A stretch of 31,026 nucleotides of DNA from a virus (IMGVR_UViG_2667527789_000013:1-31026); one strand, 5' to 3'; shown: positions 3,106-16,075, numbered from the stretch's first letter. The notes: a model not told the origin generated them from the letters alone. A program made the numbers and translations.

Positions 3106-3128
3106 AACTTCTATTTTCAAAAGAAGTT
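3106..3128 (-). terminator. Weak AT-rich hairpin overlapping tailspike stop (possible partial terminator)
   Basis: Inverted repeat AACTTCT / AGAAGTT with 9-nt loop; on the minus strand followed by a T-rich tract; stem is AT-rich so probably leaky. Confidence 0.25.
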
Positions 3129-5259
3129 AAGTGCGATTTACGCGAGAAATCTCATTCCAGAATCCTCCAGCGTAGATTAATTCGATAGTGTCAAAAGCAC
3201 CTAACATAAAATCACCATTGATACGCAGATTTCCTGTCTGATTCTTCAACGTTATGTTATCAGTTGATGTATTACGTATGAGAATGACCCTCATGCCTTC
3301 ATTACCACCATTGATAGTCGATAACTCCTGTGTACCACCAGATAATTTATGAAAGTTTCTGGTAACTGTAATTTCGCCACCAGATACAGTGACCACAGTA
3401 TAAGATGAGTTAGCGATAATACCTTTATCATCAACTGATAATTTAATGTCATTATCTTTCATTACATGGAAATTTCCTGTATTGTCCCGACGAAGAATAA
3501 TACCACTAGTGGTAATTTTTGGATTATCTGTTAGCTGAATATTGGTTTGATTTTTACTTCCAGTAAAGCGTCCACCAACTTTTCCTTTCCAAAACTCCAA
3601 TCCATAGCCAGCATTACTACCAGAGACAATCACGGTTGATTCTGTAGCAGTTTCCAGTAAAGCACCTGAAATACGAATCTGGTCTGAATTAAATCTGCAT
3701 CCAAAGAAACCTATATCACCTGTATTACTGGTTCCAATTTGTTTTTTAATACCCCCAGCTTGTTGGCTACCTGCTTGTGTTGCATTCTCAAACACCACAC
3801 CAAAATACTGAACGGCTCCACATCTGTCATATTTTACAGGAACATCCAGCTTAGTCGCTAACCAGGTTCCGTGAAAAGAAATACCGTTTCTGGATCCTTT
3901 TCCTGAAGCTGAAGGAATATCAATAAAAAGGGCATGCTCCCCCCATTGTTCAACACCTTTTTCGGTATTACGACTATGATGATCATTGCCAAAAATAGCG
4001 CCTCCGTGCATATTGAATGCACTGTTAGTTCCTGTTTGATCACCAATAATAGCCAGGCCAATATTACCCATTGTACGTGTATTGATAATTGTACAACCAT
4101 CGGGATCCTGCCCCATGTGTACAATTCCAGATTTTTTAAAGTAGCCACCTACAGTAACATTCACCGGCCCTGACAAATCAGTATTGTCAAGTATCAACCC
4201 AACATCATAATCAGCAGAATTATCATTATTAGGTTGAGTTATATTCCCATGTTGATCTTTAAAGTCAAAATCACAAACGACAGAAAAATCCCCACCAAAT
4301 GCAGTAAGCCCTTTATCTTTTCGACCTACATTACGGATGCAGTAACGCATCGATGAGAATTTATCGCTTCTACCTGTAGTAAATACCTTGCTACCAGTAC
4401 CTTTGAATAAAAGGCAAGTTCCAGGCAATTTGTGCTTATTTCCTGGAACCATATAAACTTTATCATCGTTTAGTGGAAATACACCTATTTTTGCCGCACC
4501 AACACCAGTCCACTCGCACGTTTTATCAATCCCATCAGTACAAACGTAAACACCTCTTGGGAAATGTAATGTGGCACCAATTGATGTGGCTGTATCATTT
4601 GCCAGCTGAATATATGGGGTATCATCACTAAAACCATCCCCCTTCGCCCCAAAATCGCGAACACTGACGGTATCCCGCATCTTATCCTGGAACGTTCGGT
4701 ATACTGCCCCAGAACCATACTGAATAAACCAGCCAAAACCACCAACAACCCCGGCGATTGCAGCATCGACATAATTACGCATTGAGCGATTATTTACAGC
4801 GTCCTGCTCAAGTGATGGCTCTGCAAGGTTAGATATTCTGTTTTGCTTTGCATCGTAATACCTGGCAAGCAACGAAGGTTTTATGAGCGCTCGCCTGAAC
4901 CATCCGATACATTGCTGAATAAGCATGGTCAGATAGTCAAGTGCATCCTCGTGGACCTCTGGAAAAAACTTCCCCTGATTACGAAGGTCTGTCTCCTGCA
5001 CTACATCAAGTACACGGTTTATAGTGATTCTCCAGCCATCAGCAAGCGGAGATGGCAGAACCACAGAACCGCCACTATAACTACCTGCACCAGTTACCGT
5101 ATAACCAGTATCCAGTACCAGAATTGTTACATTCCCGTTTATGTCCGATACCTGAACCACAAGGTCTGAATTTCTGAAAATTCGAAACCTGTACGGGAAT
5201 GATGTCGTAACCCCGTTACCAGTGTATTCATTGTGGTCAACTTCGGTTGAGACTGTCAT
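3127..5259 (-). CDS. Tailspike protein (T7-gp17-like N-terminal adaptor + beta-helix receptor-binding/depolymerase body)
   Basis: 710 aa; N-terminus NEYTGNGVTTSFPYRFRIF matches the conserved tail-fibre/tailspike N-terminal adaptor motif of T7-supergroup podoviruses; remainder is Gly/Asn/Thr-rich repeat-like with DFGAKGDG, typical of pectate-lyase-fold tailspikes; GGAG SD before ATG at 5259. Confidence 0.8.
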   Translation of the reverse strand: MTVSTEVDHNEYTGNGVTTSFPYRFRIFRNSDLVVQVSDINGNVTILVLDTGYTVTGAGSYSGGSVVLPSPLADGWRITINRVLDVVQETDLRNQGKFFPEVHEDALDYLTMLIQQCIGWFRRALIKPSLLARYYDAKQNRISNLAEPSLEQDAVNNRSMRNYVDAAIAGVVGGFGWFIQYGSGAVYRTFQDKMRDTVSVRDFGAKGDGFSDDTPYIQLANDTATSIGATLHFPRGVYVCTDGIDKTCEWTGVGAAKIGVFPLNDDKVYMVPGNKHKLPGTCLLFKGTGSKVFTTGRSDKFSSMRYCIRNVGRKDKGLTAFGGDFSVVCDFDFKDQHGNITQPNNDNSADYDVGLILDNTDLSGPVNVTVGGYFKKSGIVHMGQDPDGCTIINTRTMGNIGLAIIGDQTGTNSAFNMHGGAIFGNDHHSRNTEKGVEQWGEHALFIDIPSASGKGSRNGISFHGTWLATKLDVPVKYDRCGAVQYFGVVFENATQAGSQQAGGIKKQIGTSNTGDIGFFGCRFNSDQIRISGALLETATESTVIVSGSNAGYGLEFWKGKVGGRFTGSKNQTNIQLTDNPKITTSGIILRRDNTGNFHVMKDNDIKLSVDDKGIIANSSYTVVTVSGGEITVTRNFHKLSGGTQELSTINGGNEGMRVILIRNTSTDNITLKNQTGNLRINGDFMLGAFDTIELIYAGGFWNEISRVNRT

Positions 5260-5712: not shown

Positions 5713-5734
5713 AGAAAAGGCCGCAAGAGCGGCC
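5705..5734. terminator. Bidirectional rho-independent terminator between convergent genes
   Basis: Stem GGCCGC / GCGGCC with AAGA loop (5719-5734); T-run on the minus strand side (TTTTCTTT) and weaker T-rich tract on the plus side; overlaps stop of the minus-strand gene. Confidence 0.5.
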
Positions 5735-6462
5735 TATCGTTTCGCTTTGTGATCGTCCCAGCACGTTTTGCACCATGCCATTAAACCATCCGCATTTTGA
5801 TTATTAGGATAAAAGCTGGTTCGTTTTCTGCGGACATTACAAATTGGGCACCACTTCATATGACGTGTATTCTTTGGGCCATCAAGACACCTTGCACACC
5901 ACTTAGTCAATCCATCTGGATTTTTTGACGATTTCCGGAATTTTTCATATGGAAGGTTTATTCTGCATCGCAAACACTGCTTGCGGCCACTTGAAACTCT
6001 GTTAGCTGATTCTTCTTTTGACGGCGATACAGAAGGTATTCTTGCTGGCTCTGATACTGCCTGAGGTGCTTTTTTAGGTGACTGAGACGATATGTCATCA
6101 CCAGGAAATCTTCCATGATATGCCGGACGTGTTGACACTCCAGGTGGAAGCTCTGCTGCAAATGGCTTTGGCTGAATCAGTTGCCTCTCTTTTGCTAACT
6201 CCTGCTGTTTATAATATGTCTGGATTACCGCACTATCATAAGCAGGAGGTACGGAAATATTAGGCGCATTACCTCCCGTTTTTTGAAACTGAGTAGAGGT
6301 GTGTTCTATCACCTGTGTACGATTAATCGTTATCTCCCCATCTTCGGTCTTTATCGTTTTGTTATGATTAACGACCGTACGATCAGAGATCTTAGTCTTG
6401 TTCTGGTGAAGGACATAAATAATCACCGCAACCACACCAACAACTATCCAGAAAACTTCCAT
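5734..6462 (-). CDS. Membrane-anchored protein with tandem C-terminal zinc-ribbon-like repeats
   Basis: 242 aa; N-terminal TM helix (FWIVVGVVAVIIYVL) then KTK; long Pro/Ser/Gln-rich linker; two repeats of C-x2-C-x(20-25)-DGL-x2-WC-x2-C (CLRC...WCARC and CPIC...WCKTC); GAGGA SD upstream of ATG 6462. Confidence 0.6.
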   Translation of the reverse strand: MEVFWIVVGVVAVIIYVLHQNKTKISDRTVVNHNKTIKTEDGEITINRTQVIEHTSTQFQKTGGNAPNISVPPAYDSAVIQTYYKQQELAKERQLIQPKPFAAELPPGVSTRPAYHGRFPGDDISSQSPKKAPQAVSEPARIPSVSPSKEESANRVSSGRKQCLRCRINLPYEKFRKSSKNPDGLTKWCARCLDGPKNTRHMKWCPICNVRRKRTSFYPNNQNADGLMAWCKTCWDDHKAKR

Positions 6463-6481
6463 TGCTTTTCCTCACAATAAC

Positions 6482-6498
6482 ATTACCTTAAAGGTAAT
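6482..6498. promoter_or_regulatory. Operator-like palindrome ATTACC-TTAAA-GGTAAT (site B) overlapping putative promoter of the 5734..6462 gene
   Basis: Perfect half-sites; read on the minus strand this gives TTGATC-N16/17-TACCTT, with the -10-like element inside the palindrome, about 20-36 nt upstream of the ATG at 6462. Confidence 0.4.
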
Positions 6499-6574
6499 AT
6501 CTTGCTTTCAGGTGATCAAGCGTTAAACGTAACAAACCAAATGCGGTTGATTTTGATATCTCTCCGCGTTTATC

Positions 6575-7716: not shown

Positions 7717-7896
7717 ATGCGAAACGAAAAATTGCAGATGCGTAGAGCGCAAGCTGCCGCAAGACGTTCTTTCAATGGAAGCGTAGAGTACGTAAAAGTT
7801 ACTATGACAAAAGATCACGCAAGTCGCGTATCCCGCGCTTTCTTTGATTCTCGTAACAATAAGGAAAATTATGAGTTCGTCTGCGTCGCAGAATGA
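7717..7896 (+). CDS. Small basic ORF (59 aa), candidate antitoxin/regulator of the downstream gene
   Basis: ATG 7717 with GAGG SD 7 nt upstream; product MRNEKLQMRRAQAAARRSFNGSVEYVKVTMTKDHASRVSRAFFDSRNNKENYEFVCVAE; its 3' end overlaps the downstream ATG by 26 nt; below the size cut-off of the supplied ORF track. Confidence 0.35.
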   Translation: MRNEKLQMRRAQAAARRSFNGSVEYVKVTMTKDHASRVSRAFFDSRNNKENYEFVCVAE

Positions 7897-8416
7897 TAAA
7901 AATCAAATTATCAGATATAAGGGTCGAGTGTTGCATACGCAAAATTTCTCGGCCCTTTGTGCATCTGATCTTGAGCTGAAGAAAGTATCTGATGCCTTTG
8001 CCCAGTATTGGAAAACGGGATACCATCCATCTCTTGGTAAAGATGCTGCATTTGCTCGTCCGACAGAAATGCTTAAACTAAATGTCAGGCATACTCATGT
8101 CGATAACCAAGACTATATTCCAGAAGATAGTGATAAAAAACACACTGGTAAAAAATCATCTTGGGATGCATGGAAAAATATAGCGTCTGTACAAGTAAAA
8201 TGCATACCAACAAGTGATTGCTTTTTAGTTTATTCGGTAAATCACAATCGTGATGCGCTGGTTATGTTTTTTGTTGACGCAGATGCTCACAACATAACTG
8301 AGCAAGAAGAGTTTAAAGAGGCAGCAATCACAATCAGTTATCAATTCTTTGAGAAAACAAAAACAGAACCAATGCCTTTAGAAGAAGATCTTTTTTCTGA
8401 TAAATGGAAGGAATAG
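7871..8416 (+). CDS. Hypothetical 181-aa protein, possible YafO-like toxin
   Basis: ATG 7871 with AAGGA SD (track start 7844 is TTG); soluble; segments YWKTGYHPSLGKDAAFARP...LKLNVRHTHV and CFLVYSVNHNRDALVMFFV resemble, as I recall them, the conserved pattern of YafO-family ribosome-dependent mRNA interferases; visibly AT-rich coding sequence. Confidence 0.6.
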   Translation: MSSSASQNDKNQIIRYKGRVLHTQNFSALCASDLELKKVSDAFAQYWKTGYHPSLGKDAAFARPTEMLKLNVRHTHVDNQDYIPEDSDKKHTGKKSSWDAWKNIASVQVKCIPTSDCFLVYSVNHNRDALVMFFVDADAHNITEQEEFKEAAITISYQFFEKTKTEPMPLEEDLFSDKWKE

Positions 8417-8438
8417 CCCGCAGCGCGGGCTTTTTTGT
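8416..8438 (+). terminator. Rho-independent terminator after the two-gene cassette
   Basis: Stem GCCCGC / GCGGGC followed by TTTTTT, immediately after stop codon 8414-8416. Confidence 0.6.
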
Positions 8439-8470
8439 GTCTGCGGATTCCCGCCCAGGTGGCGGTGGCA

Positions 8471-8500
8471 TTCGTTAAAAACAAGGCCGCGAAAGCGGCC
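8471..8500 (-). terminator. Rho-independent terminator ending the ejection-protein operon (after the secreted-protein gene)
   Basis: Stem GGCCGC / GCGGCC with GAAA loop; on the minus strand followed by TTGTTTTTAA; 8 nt downstream of the minus-strand stop at 8508. Confidence 0.5.
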
Positions 8501-8507
8501 TGTTTGA

Positions 8508-9359
8508 TCACTGTGCAGTTTTCGCTGATCGATTTTCAGCTCTAAATTCAAGAACCGTTTCAATATTTCTTTCCTTCAGCATATCAATAACATTTTTATT
8601 CATTTGACTATCACTGGTTAATAACTGGTAAACGTTGCTTCTCTCTTTATCAGAGTTTTCTTTAACAGCTGCTTTGCATGCCAAATGCTTATTGAAATTT
8701 TCTACATCGCTAGTACAGGAATTTACGGCTGCTGATGAAATATCAGACGCTGAAGAAACACCATCATCCAAACGTTTTATAGCATTTTCTATACATGAGT
8801 TAAGGGAATAAACGACAACTGAGCGATACCCTTCAGACGCACACCATTCTAAATTTCTTGAAGGATCGAGTGGTTTTACTTCGCTGGATTGAATTAACTT
8901 GTCAAAAACTGACTTATATTCAATCTGTTTTTTATCTATAGCCCATACTTCAGTAGCTGATTTATAATTCCCCGTATGCCTATTAACATCAAATCCATGT
9001 TTTATAAGCAAATCTGCCCATGAAAGATTTATTGATTCATTGTTATGAGGCCATTTTCCTGTCAGAACCGCCCCCATAGACCCCATATGTCCGCCATATG
9101 ATGGTATAGCACCATGGCTCAGTAACTTCTCAGCAACCACAGGGCAATTAATTACATAAGAGGCGTAAAGCCCATTCCATAAAGCCCCTCTATAGTAATC
9201 GCCACGATTAGGTTCTTTTAAGTCGATAGCCTTTGATAATTGTTCACACGTTTTGCATGCATCAAAGTTATCCTTATTGCATTGCAATGAACTGGCAGCT
9301 GTAGGATTTACAGAGACTATTGAAAGCACTATGCCAAAAAACAAATTTATTTTTTTCAT
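8508..9359 (-). CDS. Secreted/periplasmic Cys-containing protein of unknown function (cargo; candidate lysogenic-conversion or exclusion factor)
   Basis: 283 aa; signal peptide MKKINLFFGIVLSIVSVNPTAAS; several Cys; visibly AT-rich relative to flanking structural genes; ATG 9359 lies 1 nt after the stop of the upstream ejection-protein gene. Confidence 0.6.
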   Translation of the reverse strand: MKKINLFFGIVLSIVSVNPTAASSLQCNKDNFDACKTCEQLSKAIDLKEPNRGDYYRGALWNGLYASYVINCPVVAEKLLSHGAIPSYGGHMGSMGAVLTGKWPHNNESINLSWADLLIKHGFDVNRHTGNYKSATEVWAIDKKQIEYKSVFDKLIQSSEVKPLDPSRNLEWCASEGYRSVVVYSLNSCIENAIKRLDDGVSSASDISSAAVNSCTSDVENFNKHLACKAAVKENSDKERSNVYQLLTSDSQMNKNVIDMLKERNIETVLEFRAENRSAKTAQ

Positions 9360-9360
9360 C

Positions 9361-12300
9361 CTATTTCATCTGCTCTTCAACTTTATTTAGTAATGGTGAT
9401 ATCGCCCACAGATTCTGAAAAGGTAGCATTTTACGGACAGCGTGGGTTTGCTGGCTGTCAAATTCTCCGTTAAGTACACCATTTGCAACCGTCGCGGCAT
9501 CACCGCCAAGATCAAAGGTAGGACCAAGTAAAGCACCAATAGCATTACGACTCTGAAACCTTGATACCGGAGGCGCACCAAACATCGCGCCAAGACCAAA
9601 CCTACCGCCGCTTATGTTCTCAACGGTATTCAGCGGCTCAGAGAGCCAGCCAAGCATTCCGCCCCGGTCGATCCCCTCTTTCACAAGGTTATTCCAGCTG
9701 TAATCGATATCGCGACCGCTTAACTTCTGTTTCATCATATAGACCATTGAGCCAAGCGCAATCGTGCCAAGCGCACCAAGATAGAATGCAGCATCGCCCT
9801 GCTGGATACCAGATACCAGCACCCTGTTATGCTGTGCGAAGATAAACGTTTTAAACTGCGTGATCATCTTCCAGCCTTCTTTACTAAAAAACAGCGGGGT
9901 ATCACCTACGCCAGGCGTTACAATCACTGAGTCTACATCTTTCAGCACTGCAGACTGGAAAATCTCTCTAGCGAAACGGTCATCCCACAGATGACTATGC
10001 CCGGTTAACAGCCCGTCCATATCCTCTCCGTGCTTCCCGAATTGCTCCCCGATTCGGCGCAGAACATCTTCATTGATGCCGACCTGTGCCATCTTCCGCA
10101 TTTCACTTTTGGAGAGCGTGCCACCAGCAGAAACTTGGCGAGCCGCGTCAAGTATCCTCGACTGCACTATCATCCCGGACCATGATTTAAGTGCGCTGTT
10201 CCACTGATTCATCAGCGTCCAGTTACCGAATTTCTGCGTCATCCAGTTCAGGCCTCGCTCAGCGGCGCTTCTCCGGCTATAGGGGTCAGTAAGATCCGCT
10301 ATAGCCTTTGTACGCGTAGACAGGACATAATCAAGCCCAACGGCCATTTCTCGCAAATCCCTGGTTGCAATCTTCACTGAGTACATATTTTTAAGCATGC
10401 TTACCATTGGTCCGAGAGATTTTCTCAGGCCATGCTGCATCATCGGTCGCATCAGATCAGTTGCAGCGGAGACGGTCATTCCACCAAGCAAACGGAGGAA
10501 GTTAATATTCCTAGCAACTCGCCCGGCACGAACAAAGAAACTGCGTGGATCTTGAGGTGCACCGTAAGTACCAAGCAGTCGATCACGCATAGCCGTAATA
10601 TCCCTAATATCAGCCTCCCGTTGCTTCTCAAGAACTGCACGTCGTTTAGGTGTTTTAGCCTCTTTTATTAGCCGGGTATATTCCTCACTAACCTGACGGA
10701 TTTGCTCCCCCATATCTTTACGGCCAAACTGCGCAGTCAGCTCAATTTCTGGTGCCACCTGCCGGAGATAACTTTCCATGATGTAGTTAACATCTGATTC
10801 AAGAAAATCTTCTATACGCTCATCAGGAATAAGCAGCGTTCTGCTTTTAGTGAAACCAGCCCGACCAACGAGTCTCTCTGGGATAATATCGGCTGGTACA
10901 AGCCCGGAAGGTGCGCCTATTATTTTATTCACGATCTCGTCAGCAGCGTCCTCTGCTTCCTCTCGGGATAGAGGCTCCATCTGCTTCAGTGCTCGTTCGC
11001 GGCTTGCATTCAGCCTTGTGGTTGAATTTGCCCGTTTTTGCAGTCGGCGAAGCTCAGAACGATATTTCCGTGGATTATCCAACAACTCCATATGGCGCTG
11101 ATAGACAGGAAGCTCACTCTTTGCCTGCGCTATATCATCAAGGCGTGTTTTAAGGTCAGAGCTTTCTTTCATCATTCTTGCCTGAAGTTTTTCTGATGAA
11201 GTCTCGGCCAACTCTTTTTCTATTCTTGTAAGACGCGCCTGTGTGTCAGTCTCCTGAGATATAAGCTTATTTCGTTTATCCAGTTCTTCCATGAGTAGAA
11301 TTTTTTTACCAGACCATTTCTCCGCTTCAGCGATTTCACTAGCGAGAGCATCAGCGCGCGGTGCCGATTCCTCTGCAGTTTTTAGCAATGAATTTATCCT
11401 TTCAATTCGCTGACCTGCTTTGTCAGCACCTTTGGCACTAATCCCTTGTATCCAGTTGGCAATTCGCCCTCTGAATTCAGTGCGGTCGGAAAGTATCTTA
11501 TCGAACTTATAAATGCGGGGAAGATAACTTTTCGCCGTCACGACATCGATATCCTTAGGAAGGATCCCCAGTTCCTGCATACGGGCTTTTGTGCTCTCGA
11601 AAATGGGGCGGATTCTGGCGGCTGCTTGTGAAACCTCAGGAATATCACTCTGATCACCACGGCGCATAGCCATGCCAACAGCTTCATTGAAATCAATAAA
11701 GTTCATCCTCTTCACGCCGCGGGCGCTAACAGATTTGCTGTACTGCTGGTAAGCATCACGAGTGGCTTCCATCTGCTTATAAAGCATGGCGTCGTATTGC
11801 TTAATCTTAGTCTCGACTGCCGTAAACGTAGCCAACCCCTCATCATTTTTGGCGAAGAAATAGTTATTTTCGGCAAGCTGCTGGTTAATCTGACGGGAGA
11901 CAAGAGATGGTGATTGCGCCAAGCGGCCAGCAGGAGTGACACTCAACGTTTTGTTAGCCAGTCCAAGTCCAGCGAGCTGTTCCTGATCGAGTGTGGTATT
12001 GAAAACCTGAGCTGCACCAATGCTTTGAGGAGAATCCATACCTCGCAAATGATTACCTACTGAGTTAACCACTGCCTCGCGCGCGCCAGGTCCAGCAAGT
12101 AGCTGTGCACCAGCACCAAGGATCCCACCAACGAGAGCATCAACAACAACATTCGATACGCTCTCCATCGGTGAGCGAGCTTCCTGAGTGGCCTGTAATG
12201 CGGCCTCTGAAGCAACACTGCCAGCAGCATTCGCCAGGGCAAAACGCCCGGCTGTTTCTGCAATACGACCGCCACGAACGACAGCGCCGAACGGAATAAA

Positions 12301-12750
12301 CATAGAAATCGCATTGAATGGATCTGCTAATCTCATTGCTACAGAAGAGACTGTACCAGCAAATCCCAAGCCTGAATTGTATTCCATGTCAGCTCTCTGC
12401 TGATCGATTCGATGTTTAATTGCCATTGTTTCTTCAGGCGAACCGGAGTTGATAAACGAATCTGCAAAATCTTCATAGCCTTTAATATCTGCTGCATCGT
12501 TATCAAATGGGTTATATCCTTCAACCCTGTCAAACTGACTGAAAGGAGCACTGGCAATAAAGCTACCCAGCGTGTTATCTATACGAAATGCTGCTTGTCT
12601 AGACCTTTGAACGCGTTGATCACTGGTAAATGGGTTCACAGCAGAAAGCAAAGAAGGTGTTTCCATATAGAAATTACTGTCATCAGGTGCTGCTATTTGC
12701 TGAATATCCTCGCCAAGCAACTCTTTAGGATCCTGTTCATATATCGGCAT
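9361..12750 (-). CDS. Internal virion/ejection protein (T7 gp16-like position), 1129 aa
   Basis: Large protein at the last position of the internal-core gene set; coiled-coil-rich middle; start overlaps stop of upstream gene; GGGGG SD. Confidence 0.6.
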   Translation of the reverse strand: MPIYEQDPKELLGEDIQQIAAPDDSNFYMETPSLLSAVNPFTSDQRVQRSRQAAFRIDNTLGSFIASAPFSQFDRVEGYNPFDNDAADIKGYEDFADSFINSGSPEETMAIKHRIDQQRADMEYNSGLGFAGTVSSVAMRLADPFNAISMFIPFGAVVRGGRIAETAGRFALANAAGSVASEAALQATQEARSPMESVSNVVVDALVGGILGAGAQLLAGPGAREAVVNSVGNHLRGMDSPQSIGAAQVFNTTLDQEQLAGLGLANKTLSVTPAGRLAQSPSLVSRQINQQLAENNYFFAKNDEGLATFTAVETKIKQYDAMLYKQMEATRDAYQQYSKSVSARGVKRMNFIDFNEAVGMAMRRGDQSDIPEVSQAAARIRPIFESTKARMQELGILPKDIDVVTAKSYLPRIYKFDKILSDRTEFRGRIANWIQGISAKGADKAGQRIERINSLLKTAEESAPRADALASEIAEAEKWSGKKILLMEELDKRNKLISQETDTQARLTRIEKELAETSSEKLQARMMKESSDLKTRLDDIAQAKSELPVYQRHMELLDNPRKYRSELRRLQKRANSTTRLNASRERALKQMEPLSREEAEDAADEIVNKIIGAPSGLVPADIIPERLVGRAGFTKSRTLLIPDERIEDFLESDVNYIMESYLRQVAPEIELTAQFGRKDMGEQIRQVSEEYTRLIKEAKTPKRRAVLEKQREADIRDITAMRDRLLGTYGAPQDPRSFFVRAGRVARNINFLRLLGGMTVSAATDLMRPMMQHGLRKSLGPMVSMLKNMYSVKIATRDLREMAVGLDYVLSTRTKAIADLTDPYSRRSAAERGLNWMTQKFGNWTLMNQWNSALKSWSGMIVQSRILDAARQVSAGGTLSKSEMRKMAQVGINEDVLRRIGEQFGKHGEDMDGLLTGHSHLWDDRFAREIFQSAVLKDVDSVIVTPGVGDTPLFFSKEGWKMITQFKTFIFAQHNRVLVSGIQQGDAAFYLGALGTIALGSMVYMMKQKLSGRDIDYSWNNLVKEGIDRGGMLGWLSEPLNTVENISGGRFGLGAMFGAPPVSRFQSRNAIGALLGPTFDLGGDAATVANGVLNGEFDSQQTHAVRKMLPFQNLWAISPLLNKVEEQMK

Positions 12751-15497
12751 TATTTGCCCCCTGCGTATATATTGCTCGGAAGGTAATTGGCTGAACCATA
12801 ACCGAATGGTTTGGTCAGATCTGGAGGAGTATATCCATCTTTATTGCTGAACTGCGGCAGCGGATTGCCTTCTCTCCGCACTCTAGCCTCATCAACACGC
12901 TGTTGCTGGAACTGAATGGTTTGCCTGTACATTGGAGATGTCAGCTGATCCGGCTTGAAACGAACAGGGAGACCATTTTCTCCAATATAATTTCTCGGTT
13001 CTATCGCTCTGTTTGCGTCAGGCTGTAAAACCATAACAGCATAACTCCTATCCCTTGCCGTAAGGCCATCAGAAACAAGTATTAAGTCCGTATCACTGCG
13101 AGGACCGCCAAAGGATTTTGATTTAAGCTCGCGTTTTTCCTGCTCCCACTGCCCCTGTATCCAGTTACCAGCACCATTATTTACTCCGTACAATGCCTCA
13201 GGTGCATACTTCATAACCTCTGCTTTGCCATTAACCGTAGAAACTCCCCAGGTGGTTCTGATCATGGCATTGGTCATTTTCTCAGCCTGTTCTGCATCGC
13301 CACCTGTCTGTACAAAGTTAGCATCGTAAATTGTCTGGTAATCTCGCTGATAGGCCGCATTTGATTTTCCTGGATCGGTAATATCCGGAGACCACGAACC
13401 AAAGGAAGTCAGACTGCTGGCGTTATTTTGTGCAGCAGTTGCCCTCGCCGCGACATATTTTTTGTCTCGCATGGCAGTGGAAAGCATCTGTTTCATTCGG
13501 TCATCCTGTTGGAACACCTGGCTGTAAGCCATATCAACAGCCTTATCCTCCGGCACGCCAGCGCGGGAATAATCGTAAACCTTGCCGTAAAATGCCATCG
13601 TACTTTTATCAAGTGTTGCCGCTGCCGCCGGATTATTATCGAATAACTGACCGTAGAATTTTGCCATCGGGACAACCAGCGCAGGATCTCTTGATGTTGC
13701 TCCACTGTTAAGCATTGTTTTAACCTGAGTTGGTATCATGCCGCTTTTAGTTGTGACGGTGACCAGTGTATTGATGCTCTGCGGATCAGATATGGAAAAC
13801 GAAGGCGCGATATCCTGCGCGAAATAACGGTCTACCGCTGCCTGATTGTTTTTGTCGTTCGGGTCCAGCGGGAAGTTATTTTGCATTGAAGACACGAACC
13901 TGTTTCTTCCCTGCTGAATCTCCCACTCCCTATTCATCTCTTTAAATTTGGCCTGCATTTTCTCCCAGCGTTGCTGGTTAGCTGCAAATCCAGGAGCGTT
14001 TGGATCCTGTGGACGTAAACGTTCAAGAATGTCTTGTCGTCCTTCTGGAGTGAGGTCTTTAGCGGCGCCAATGACACCTCCATATTGTATCTGCGCCTGC
14101 ATATCCTTCCACTTCATAGCGCCAATGCGCGGACCATTGGCCCGGATAAAATCGTCCTCAGAAGGTAACTTCTCAGGTTTCAATCCTTCATCAAGGGCTG
14201 AATATGCATCTTTAACTACGGTGCTAAGCTGGTCCGCATACTGCTGGCGGTACTGATTTCTCAGCTCATTAGCCTGCCTCAATGCCTGTATTTGCATTTG
14301 AGGGCTCATAGCATCAAATGCCGCATTGCCCGTATAACGCTTAGGTGAATCAAGGTTAGTTAGACCAAGGGCTGCCGAGATACCAGTTTCAAGCTGTTCG
14401 GTGCTATAAGGCATACTGCCATTTTCGTGTTTAATAATCCCAGCACATAAAGCAGCTAGTGTCTTTGGGTTAGAGATATCAAGCTGATCATTCTCCCCAA
14501 CACCAAGCTCACCACACAATGCCCTAATATAAGCATCAGTATTATTACCATCACTAGCCGGAGCATAGCGATTAACAATCTCGCTAACGGTGTCATAGCC
14601 TTGACGCTGGTAAGACAACATATTTTTACCCAACGCGCGGATTCCATGCTCAGGGGTAGCAAACGTTGCAAAACGTCCATCGCTACCGATCTGACCTTCC
14701 CACGGGTTAGATTTGCTCGCTTCAATATTACCAGGGTTATTATTACGTAAACCACGAGCATCCAATGAATTACCATGTGATATTGCACGACTCACACCAT
14801 CAAGATCCCCTGGCTCTCCATTAACCTGAAGAAACTCGTTGTATTTTTGAGCGATATTTCCTATCCATGCTTGCTGCCCCATTTGTTCCTTGAGCTGAGT
14901 TTTCTGCTGAACACGCCACTCATCAGGAAGCCCATGCGCATCAGCGTATTGATCAATAGATTCAAATCGCTGCTTGGCTAAATCGACAAATGCTTGGTTA
15001 TCGCTATATAGCCCCGCAGACTGAGTGACAGCCAATGCATTTCCTGACAAATACGTTTGATCTTGAAATTGCTGAAACTGCCCAACTTCATATCGACGTG
15101 CCTGATTGTAATAAGACTGCATAGACTGCTGGAGTTGAAAGGATAATTTATTCCTTTCCTCACTTTCAGGAATTGAGTCTAATAATGCCTGAGCCCTTTC
15201 CTGCATATTTTTCATAACAGCGTCACTCTGACCAAGAGCGTTTTTACCCTGTTTAGAAATCAGCCCATTTTCAGGGTTGTTAATCTGGTCATCTGCAAAT
15301 TGGTTAAATTGCAGTAACGCCTCCTCGGCCATAGCAACATTCGCTTTCTGCCTGGCTTCACCATATGCCACCGCATACTGATCTGCGACATTCGCCAGCA
15401 CCTGACCTGCTTGAGGAACATCGAAGGTCTGAAAACCACCGGTTTGCACACCACGACTTTGCACCTGGCGTCCGGATGTAGTAGGAACAACAGGCAT
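12750..15497 (-). CDS. Internal virion/ejection protein (T7 gp15-like position), 915 aa, with a possible peptidoglycan-hydrolase-like segment
   Basis: AGGAGG SD; position and size fit gp15-like; residues about 245-365 contain LRNNNPGNIEA...W.G...F.TF.TPEHGIRA...YAP, which I associate with virion-associated muralytic domains (unverified). Confidence 0.6.
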   Translation of the reverse strand: MPVVPTTSGRQVQSRGVQTGGFQTFDVPQAGQVLANVADQYAVAYGEARQKANVAMAEEALLQFNQFADDQINNPENGLISKQGKNALGQSDAVMKNMQERAQALLDSIPESEERNKLSFQLQQSMQSYYNQARRYEVGQFQQFQDQTYLSGNALAVTQSAGLYSDNQAFVDLAKQRFESIDQYADAHGLPDEWRVQQKTQLKEQMGQQAWIGNIAQKYNEFLQVNGEPGDLDGVSRAISHGNSLDARGLRNNNPGNIEASKSNPWEGQIGSDGRFATFATPEHGIRALGKNMLSYQRQGYDTVSEIVNRYAPASDGNNTDAYIRALCGELGVGENDQLDISNPKTLAALCAGIIKHENGSMPYSTEQLETGISAALGLTNLDSPKRYTGNAAFDAMSPQMQIQALRQANELRNQYRQQYADQLSTVVKDAYSALDEGLKPEKLPSEDDFIRANGPRIGAMKWKDMQAQIQYGGVIGAAKDLTPEGRQDILERLRPQDPNAPGFAANQQRWEKMQAKFKEMNREWEIQQGRNRFVSSMQNNFPLDPNDKNNQAAVDRYFAQDIAPSFSISDPQSINTLVTVTTKSGMIPTQVKTMLNSGATSRDPALVVPMAKFYGQLFDNNPAAAATLDKSTMAFYGKVYDYSRAGVPEDKAVDMAYSQVFQQDDRMKQMLSTAMRDKKYVAARATAAQNNASSLTSFGSWSPDITDPGKSNAAYQRDYQTIYDANFVQTGGDAEQAEKMTNAMIRTTWGVSTVNGKAEVMKYAPEALYGVNNGAGNWIQGQWEQEKRELKSKSFGGPRSDTDLILVSDGLTARDRSYAVMVLQPDANRAIEPRNYIGENGLPVRFKPDQLTSPMYRQTIQFQQQRVDEARVRREGNPLPQFSNKDGYTPPDLTKPFGYGSANYLPSNIYAGGK

Positions 15498-16075
15498 CAG
15501 TAACCTCCTATTTTGAATCGGGAGTCAGAATTCATAAAACCTGAGTTAGATAACATTGGCGTCCCACCACTAGATGTACTTCCTTTAGAGAACGGACTCC
15601 ACGTCCCACCAAACATCTGGTATGCACCGTACGCTTTTAGTGGTGCCGTTAACAAAGTGCTGGTCATCGATGATTTAGCAGCCGACTGAGCAGCAGCCCT
15701 CTGTGCCTGAGCATTCATTCCCTGAACCTGATATCCATATGCCTCACGCTGAGCATTATTCACTGTCGTTAACGCATCAAGAGTGCCGAACTGAGCATTA
15801 TCCGCAAAAACGTCAAGAGCTGTTCCGCTACTTAATTCCGCACCGGTAGCCCCCATAGTAGCCGCCGCAGTGCCTGAGCGTTGACGCATTTCACGACGAC
15901 GCTGATCTGCTTCAATATTCCCACGATTGATTGAATCCTGTGCCTGAGCTTCAGCAATTTCAGCATTCCGATCAGCTATGGCTGACTGGTATTTTGCCTG
16001 CTTGCTCTGGCTGTACATTGACGCGGCTGTGGATGCCACTGTGACGGCAACCAAAGCGATGGCTGGGTTACACAT
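15497..16075 (-). CDS. Internal virion protein (T7 gp14-like position), 192 aa
   Basis: Ala/Gln-rich with hydrophobic N-terminus; size and position between gp13-like and gp15-like; stop-start overlaps on both sides. Confidence 0.5.
   Translation of the reverse strand: MCNPAIALVAVTVASTAASMYSQSKQAKYQSAIADRNAEIAEAQAQDSINRGNIEADQRRREMRQRSGTAAATMGATGAELSSGTALDVFADNAQFGTLDALTTVNNAQREAYGYQVQGMNAQAQRAAAQSAAKSSMTSTLLTAPLKAYGAYQMFGGTWSPFSKGSTSSGGTPMLSNSGFMNSDSRFKIGGY

Follow-up and report, generated by a model that had tools for sequence, protein, structure and literature searches.

What role could a gene for a secreted protein play at the end of an operon that encodes the ejection proteins of a phage? 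This question is raised by an open reading frame (ORF) at positions 8508-9359 (minus strand) of a 31,026-nt stretch of DNA, referred to here as the window. The window represents a temperate podophage of the epsilon15/phiV10-like type that is integrated in E. coli next to yfgH and yfgI. The nearest chromosome found is that of E. coli strain 2013C-3033, and the nearest isolated phage is EC.W1-9. The late operon runs on the minus strand through genes for proteins of 823, 154, 192, 915 and 1129 amino acids (aa), in this order, and then into the ORF, whose product has 283 aa. The ejection set begins with the 192-aa protein (15497..16075), a T7 gp14-family internal virion protein (Pfam PF24072, E=1.9e-8), and continues with two internal virion/ejection proteins, the 915-aa protein in a gp15-like position (12750..15497) and the 1129-aa protein in a T7 gp16-like position (9361..12750), the gene for the latter lying directly upstream of the 283-aa gene in all contexts.

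The first step is to define how the gene is embedded in the operon. The TAG of the 1129-aa gene (9361-9363) and the ATG of the 283-aa gene (9357-9359) are separated by a single base (9360), and the resulting TAG-G-ATG junction (9357..9363, minus strand) is identical in all E. coli and Klebsiella copies. As the junction has no good Shine-Dalgarno sequence, termination-reinitiation coupling is implied; in relatives from other genera, the two genes are 11-36 nt apart and a Shine-Dalgarno sequence lies in the spacer. At the opposite end, an intrinsic terminator (8474..8501, minus strand) begins 6 nt past the stop codon (8508-8510) and consists of the hairpin AGGCCGC-TTTC-GCGGCCT (8501..8484) followed by TGTTTTT, which ends the late/ejection operon. 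The GC content of the gene is 36.9% (GC3 0.28) as compared with 46.7-49.9% (GC3 0.42-0.51) in the five upstream structural genes. The sequence-only reading had claimed a start 1 nt after the upstream stop, an end at the operon terminator and AT-richness relative to the structural genes, and all of this is confirmed by the coordinates and the composition. Low GC is also found in the homologues, at 32-40% against 47-55% in their phages or neighbours (L005, L009, L011, L042 and L112 included), and it persists in all lineages despite co-divergence with the neighbours. On the other side of the terminator, an ORF on the plus strand (7844-8416) that converges on this region resembles a YafO-family toxin (Pfam PF13957, E=1.2e-5; phrog_1651); the stretch that contains it is 120 nt longer than in strain 2013C-3033, and no antitoxin partner was identified.

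As for expression signals, a consensus scan of 8200-10200 revealed no sigma-70-like promoter upstream of the 283-aa gene, and a laxer scan returned weak 8-9/12 matches only, with nothing convincing within 840 nt upstream, a result that does not by itself disprove the existence of a promoter. As judged from its junctions, the gene is coupled to the late structural operon, either by stop/start coupling of the kind described or by a Shine-Dalgarno sequence in a short spacer. Since no promoter was found and such coupling is present, late expression looks likely.

The product corresponds to the full-length model of PHROG 6118, whose function is unannotated. Scans of the 283-aa protein and of its stand-alone domain relatives against Pfam, NCBIfam and PADLOC retrieved no family and no described immunity family. 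The initial view that the protein belongs to no recognisable family is thus correct for these three resources and gives way where PHROG 6118 and an ankyrin-like fold are concerned. Homologues with 39-89% identity occur in Klebsiella, Serratia, Morganella, Providencia and metagenomes. The pairwise dN/dS of the gene is 0.15-0.20, with tighter values (0.04-0.07) for the adjacent 1129-aa gene, and the AlphaFold model, built on a 51-sequence alignment, has a mean pLDDT of 91.4. Because of these dN/dS values and of the confident fold, the ORF is a real gene under purifying selection and not a chance ORF.

Two domains can be distinguished in the protein. The N-terminal domain (aa ~25-165; 8865..9287, minus strand) is ankyrin-repeat-like and bears a C-x7-C-x2-C...C pattern (C27, C35, C38, C72), while the C-terminal domain (aa ~170-283; 8511..8852, minus strand) is a helical bundle with the motif C-x9-DDG-[VI]-S-x-ASDI-x7-C (C189/C215), and it also has the family-specific cysteine pair C173/C228. 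In exhaustive profile searches, each domain was also found alone: the N-terminal one as secreted proteins of ~160 aa that keep C27, C35, C38 and C72, and the C-terminal one as secreted proteins of 110-160 aa that keep C189, C215 and the DDG-x-S-x-ASDI motif. The fold matches of the modelled N-terminal domain are almost exclusively ankyrin repeats, and the model shows the stacked helix-turn-helix repeats and beta-hairpin fingers of that fold. At the sequence level, the protein has no Pfam match at E<=0.1, ankyrin models included, and the comparison of the N-terminal domain profile with PDB sequences gives marginal matches only (best 1n11_A, E=0.0099); a fused relative, P0054, matches Ank at E=0.013 and falls short of the cut-off. 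Domains of the N-terminal type are elsewhere fused to CpoB/YbgF-type TPR, MORN repeats and classical ankyrin repeats, and thus the ankyrin-like domain behaves as a periplasmic binding module. For the C-terminal helical domain, neither a family nor an informative fold match was retrieved, and its stand-alone relatives lie on contigs shorter than 3.5 kb. For the N-terminal domain, the stand-alone protein that matches most closely in the protein collection searched is P0086, whose 2.2-kb contig shows no informative neighbouring gene.

The next question is where the protein acts. Codons 1-24 (9288..9359, minus strand) encode a Sec-type signal peptide, MKKINLFFGIVLSIVSVNPTAASS, read by eye, with likely cleavage after A22-S24. 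The N-terminus, MKKINLFFGIVLSIVSVNPTAAS followed by S, has by the same reading an n-region of charge +2, a 13-residue hydrophobic core and small residues at -3/-1. Signal-peptide-like N-termini are present in all 13 homologues and in the stand-alone domain relatives. The signal peptide is the sole hydrophobic segment, and the remainder is modelled as a soluble helical protein. In E. coli, a Sec signal peptide alone delivers a protein to the periplasm only. The eight cysteines (C27, C35, C38, C72, C173, C189, C215 and C228) divide evenly between the two domains and are all invariant in 14 homologues, at identities down to 39%. A lipoprotein was considered and rejected, as Gln occupies position -1 of Cys27 and there is hence no lipobox. 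The signal peptide, the even number of invariant cysteines and the occurrence of both domains as stand-alone secreted proteins outside phages together make it almost certain that the protein leaves the cytoplasm and is no part of the virion, export itself being a prediction. The same evidence upholds what had been read from the sequence at the outset, namely a signal peptide (here with an n-h-c layout), several cysteines and a periplasmic rather than a virion location.

The genomic position of the gene is fixed. It directly follows an ejection gene of 937-1157 codons in every context examined, with a gap of 1-36 nt, and these contexts include E. coli, Klebsiella, Serratia, Morganella and Providencia-type phages as well as metagenome contigs. 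The identity between E. coli and Serratia is 61% for the 283-aa gene and 79% for its neighbour, and between E. coli and Morganella 41% and 55%, respectively. A recent random insertion was therefore rejected, as the gene keeps its place across five genera and diverges roughly in step with its neighbour. The tailspike gene is found on the other side, which places the 283-aa gene between the ejection genes and the tailspike. The tailspike gene itself (3127-5259, minus strand) encodes a protein with a beta-helix of the pectate-lyase type and, at its N-terminus, a conserved head-binding part (aa 1-220), and its receptor-binding parts are wholly different in the relatives L003, L005 and L008. A variable region between the tailspike and anti-repressor genes contains a gene (5734-6462, minus strand) for a 242-aa protein (phrog_6762) with C-terminal matches to endonuclease VII, HNH and Lar-like zinc-finger families.

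The presence of the gene is variable. It was found in 106 of 5,426 complete E. coli genomes (~2%), an identical 3' end of the 1129-aa gene being present in 120, and about 14 of these 120 prophages, in which the 1129-aa gene is 98.8% identical, carry a different cassette in exactly that slot. Among 59 phage records with a homologue of the 1129-aa protein, a single one has the 283-aa gene, which is absent from phiV10, TL-2011b and the Klebsiella and Vibrio phages compared. The gene is accessory, not core. A core structural or ejection gene was accordingly rejected, since the gene is not kept wherever the ejection module is kept, and the conservation within a core structural module that the sequence-only reading had named as an argument against itself is not seen.

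Indeed, the slot from the stop of the 1129-aa gene to the terminator (8502-9360) is a cassette-exchange site with fixed flanks, the terminator being its distal edge. In near-identical E. coli prophages (L014 1908-2810), a two-gene cassette stands in place of the DNA from the 1129-aa stop to the terminator hairpin; it is made of a 146-aa secreted cysteine-rich ORF on the opposite strand (phrog_8772) and a 149-aa ORF (phrog_9944). Klebsiella phages with a 92%-identical ejection protein have an unrelated 204-aa ORF in the slot (phrog_3383; L013 5380-5994), and phiV10 has a 46-aa ORF with two transmembrane segments (L004 9055-9195). At short range, the synonymous divergence of the 283-aa gene does not match that of its neighbour: dS is 0.40 as against 1.05 for the neighbour when E. 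coli is compared with Klebsiella, and 0.115 as against 0.042 when two E. coli alleles are compared, which also indicates cassette exchange. The deviant composition (37% as compared with 47-50% GC) and the swapping of cassettes among close relatives are those of a moron; of the associated signals, the terminator is present, no promoter was found by scan and the start lies 1 nt after the upstream stop.

A candidate target is encoded in the same operon. [quoted passage not shown] The PHA02564 family to which it is assigned has measured muralytic activity and a lysozyme-like fold (PMC8943055). The muralytic domain is present in the ejection proteins of all relatives, including those that lack the 283-aa gene, and thus the gene is not needed for the phage's own ejection. 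In Morganella- and Providencia-type carriers, an Enc34/PHA02564-type endolysin is also found in the lysis cassette (L005 12247-12723; L048 12244-12720; L049 15190-15666); its domain is of the same type as that in their ejection protein, and the E. coli phage uses a GH19 enzyme for lysis.

The stand-alone relatives of the ankyrin-like domain, collected from genomes and metagenomes, allow the two domains to be followed outside the podophage operon. These relatives match PHROG 6118 at E=1e-29 to 1e-35, and their flanks were searched with the muralytic-domain profile; the narrower alignment A3 was used for the locus scans, alignment A2 being too diverse. Among the seven stand-alone loci with at least 2 kb on both sides, a muralytic neighbour is present in three (L083, L051 and L050) and was not found in four. 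In L083, a gene for a secreted 157-aa ankyrin-like protein is followed after 8 nt by one for a PHA02564 protein of 182 aa that lacks a signal peptide (E=1.6e-35), and the pair lies 1.3 kb from tssH (1274 bits, cut-off 885) and hcp (PF05638, E=1.7e-30). The layout of a type VI effector-immunity pair, with an enzyme lacking a signal peptide, a secreted partner and type VI secretion system (T6SS) core genes nearby, is seen in L083 only. The 182-aa enzyme of this locus (L083 1313-6967) has a histidine-rich tail, and the two genes may be regarded as a candidate effector-immunity pair; no description of such an effector was found in the literature search. In L051, a Bacteriovoracia metagenome-assembled genome (MAG), the ankyrin-like gene shares 4 nt with a gene for a 219-aa PHA02564+DUF3892 protein. 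In L050, a long-tailed prophage, this muralytic domain forms the end of the tape-measure protein (phrog_873, E=2e-40); the last gene of the tail cluster, behind those for the hub, the spike and tail completion, is the ankyrin-like one. The podophage operon and these three loci are four independent settings that unite the ankyrin-like and muralytic domains, and in two of the four the enzyme is a protein delivered into the periplasm by the virion.

A different partner is seen in a more distant subgroup from Alphaproteobacteria (L016, L017, L018, L019 and L020; gene at 6001-6500), where the stand-alone ankyrin-like gene always comes after a small c-type cytochrome gene with a gap of 5-39 nt. This pairing suggests that the fold is a general periplasmic binder and that specificity may differ between subgroups. 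The same gene adjoins a divergent EF-hand/ferric-reductase (NOX-like) gene, forming a conserved three-gene neighbourhood.

On these grounds, the 283-aa protein may be an accessory periplasmic inhibitor of the immunity type, directed against the injected muralytic domain in a manner similar to T4 Spackle, a proposal to which we give somewhat less than an even chance. Sec export and cleavage of the signal peptide would place the protein in the periplasm, where four disulfides would stabilise the ankyrin-repeat-like binding domain and the helical domain. The muralytic enzyme is expected to enter the periplasm solely during ejection of the internal virion proteins, and for this reason the 283-aa protein would act on incoming phages of the same ejection type. 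There, the ankyrin-like domain would bind and neutralise the PHA02564-type domain of the ejected gp15-like protein (aa 247-405 of the 915-aa protein), such that peptidoglycan cutting is stopped or assembly of the trans-periplasmic conduit is blocked. The outcome could be superinfection exclusion, or the sparing of the infected cell from damage by sibling virions (lysis from without).

In favour of the inhibitor are the candidate target encoded in the same operon and the recurrence of the association in L083, L051 and L050. The character of the protein as a predicted exported binding module, the fixed place of its gene directly after the last ejection gene and the precedents of T4 Spackle, Bdellovibrio Bd3460 and P22 SieA point the same way. 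Exclusion genes are typically accessory and swappable, as the 283-aa gene is, and the protein is plausibly an exclusion factor. The sequence-only reading had proposed superinfection exclusion or lysogenic conversion. The former gains a candidate target in the PHA02564 domain of the 915-aa protein; the latter is unsupported, because it implies expression in the lysogen, while the scans yielded no sigma-70-like promoter and the start of the gene is tied to the late operon. The same point weighs against the inhibitor itself, as classical prophage exclusion genes are expected to be expressed in lysogens and the expression of the 283-aa gene looks late. The four of seven well-flanked stand-alone loci in which no muralytic neighbour was found, and the cytochrome c pairing in Alphaproteobacteria, also speak against it. 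In addition, a broad inhibitor would hinder the PHA02564 endolysin of the Morganella- and Providencia-type carriers. Virion-borne muralytic activity is often dispensable under good growth conditions, as for T7 gp16, and thus inhibition of the enzyme might not suffice for exclusion. Nor would an inhibitor account for the C-terminal domain or for the GC content, which stays low throughout.

In broader terms, PHROG 6118 and its stand-alone relatives could belong to a hitherto unrecognised family, whose members would be ankyrin-type periplasmic immunity proteins stapled by cysteines, with specificity for the lysozyme-fold muralytic domain of the Enc34/PHA02564 type, and would be common to podophages, long-tailed phages and type VI loci. 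This generalisation is tentative, and we would sooner expect it to fail than to hold. If true, the targets would be ejected gp15-like proteins in podophages, tape-measure lysins in long-tailed phages and effectors in type VI loci.

Other explanations have to be weighed against the proposed inhibitor. The protein could be expressed late and assist the phage's own lytic cycle from the periplasm, by binding a component of the host envelope or a lysis protein, rather than ejected proteins; it might tune the timing of lysis or condition the envelope or debris so that progeny are not wasted. Coupling to the late operon with no promoter of its own found would fit such a role, as would the varied periplasmic partners of the ankyrin-like domain, which include CpoB/YbgF-type TPR and MORN fusions and the cytochrome c pairing; moreover, the PHA02564 endolysin of the Morganella-type relatives could be its regulatory target. 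However, the endolysins of the carriers vary (GH19, T4-type lysozyme, M15 peptidase and PHA02564) while the gp15 muralytic domain is constant, and the gene is dispensable in close relatives with the same lysis and structural genes. A helper of this kind is thus unlikely, though it deserves to be kept in view.

A second alternative is that the gene is orphan immunity cargo that protects the lysogen not from phages but from the type VI-delivered PHA02564 effectors of competitors, which would be lysogenic conversion in the strict sense. The ankyrin-like/muralytic pair of L083, 1.3 kb from hcp and tssH, argues for it, as the enzyme is without and its partner with a signal peptide, similar to effector-immunity pairs that act in the periplasm, and the AT-rich, swappable phage gene is itself cargo-like. 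Against it, the gene occupies a fixed position in five genera beside ejection genes that themselves carry the domain; the scans found no promoter for expression in the lysogen, the T6SS-linked example is a single one, and the literature search found no PHA02564 T6SS effector for Enterobacteriaceae. We therefore regard orphan immunity as doubtful.

A third possibility, that the protein is a fourth member of the ejection or virion proteins and that its hydrophobic N-terminus serves for membrane insertion, takes up the conserved position of the gene as the translationally coupled last member of the ejection operon. It is very improbable in view of the canonical n-h-c signal peptide and the eight invariant cysteines, of the secretion of both domains in non-phage chromosomal contexts, and of the absence of the gene from 58 of 59 records with homologous ejection proteins and its swapping in near-identical prophages. 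Finally, a secreted ankyrin protein aimed at the animal host hardly merits consideration even though the carriers are gut and clinical Enterobacterales and ANKp-type phage proteins exist, as a Sec signal peptide alone stops at the periplasm in E. coli, no match was obtained to the Pfam ankyrin models that defined ANKp-type phages, and the stand-alone relatives occur in soil, marine and predatory bacteria and beside muralytic genes. The precedent is the sponge-phage ANKp, which dampens phagocyte responses, phage ankyrin proteins with signal peptides being modulators of macrophages (bioRxiv 10.1101/608950).

Should the 283-aa protein be an inhibitor of the ejected muralytic domain, several consequences would follow. 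To our knowledge, only a small number of the mechanisms that exclude superinfecting phages at DNA entry are understood, and P22 SieA is the sole one studied in short-tailed phages. A soluble periplasmic inhibitor of the ejected muralytic domain would be a second and mechanistically simple route of entry exclusion, and no Spackle-like mechanism would have been described before it in the temperate podophages of Enterobacterales. It would also explain the variable slot after the ejection genes in epsilon15-like prophages, and link phage exclusion to type VI effector-immunity pairs via one shared enzyme-inhibitor pair. Enc34-type lysins are under development as antibacterials, and the protein would represent a natural inhibitor for them. 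The PHROG 6118 family is uncharacterised, and an ankyrin-type inhibitor of an ejected Enc34-type lysin would be new.

The proposal can be placed among systems that are already known. In terms of gene position, the closest is P22 sieA, which is encoded between gene 16 and the tailspike gene and whose product acts on the ejection-protein conduit, with SieA escape mutations that map to the ejection proteins (PMC10461980). The 283-aa gene is likewise an accessory gene between the last ejection gene and the tailspike, present in some relatives only. The two proteins are not homologous: SieA spans the inner membrane several times, and its gene has a dedicated promoter and is expressed from the prophage, whereas the 283-aa protein is predicted to be soluble and periplasmic, and its gene has no recognisable promoter and is coupled to an ejection gene. 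Periplasmic immunity proteins of type VI systems are similar in that an enzyme without a signal peptide lies beside a small secreted partner, as in L083 near hcp and tssH; unlike their genes, the phage gene is without a free-standing effector neighbour, and its presumed partner domain is inside the 915-aa virion protein.

As regards the fold, the relevant system is Bd3460 of Bdellovibrio bacteriovorus, an ankyrin protein that inhibits peptidoglycan endopeptidases for self-protection and is encoded beside its target (PMC4686830). The 283-aa protein shares the ankyrin fold at the level of the model, and a relative of its N-terminal domain in the Bacteriovoracia MAG overlaps a muralytic gene (L051). 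No sequence similarity to solved ankyrin inhibitors was detectable, the PDB profile matches being marginal and to generic ankyrins; Bd3460 targets DD-endopeptidases whereas the proposed target here is a lysozyme-fold glycosidase, and only the family of the 283-aa protein has the cysteine-stapled pattern and the C-terminal domain. As regards function, the model is T4 Spackle (gp61.3), a periplasmic inhibitor of the gp5 tail lysozyme (PMC7677548, PMC7650644). Spackle is absent among the sequence and fold matches of the 283-aa protein to solved structures, so that the likeness is not one of homology. Both are phage-encoded helical proteins with a signal peptide and a periplasmic location, predicted in the case of the 283-aa protein, and the neutralisation of the muralytic domain of an incoming virion, established for Spackle, is what we propose for the 283-aa protein.
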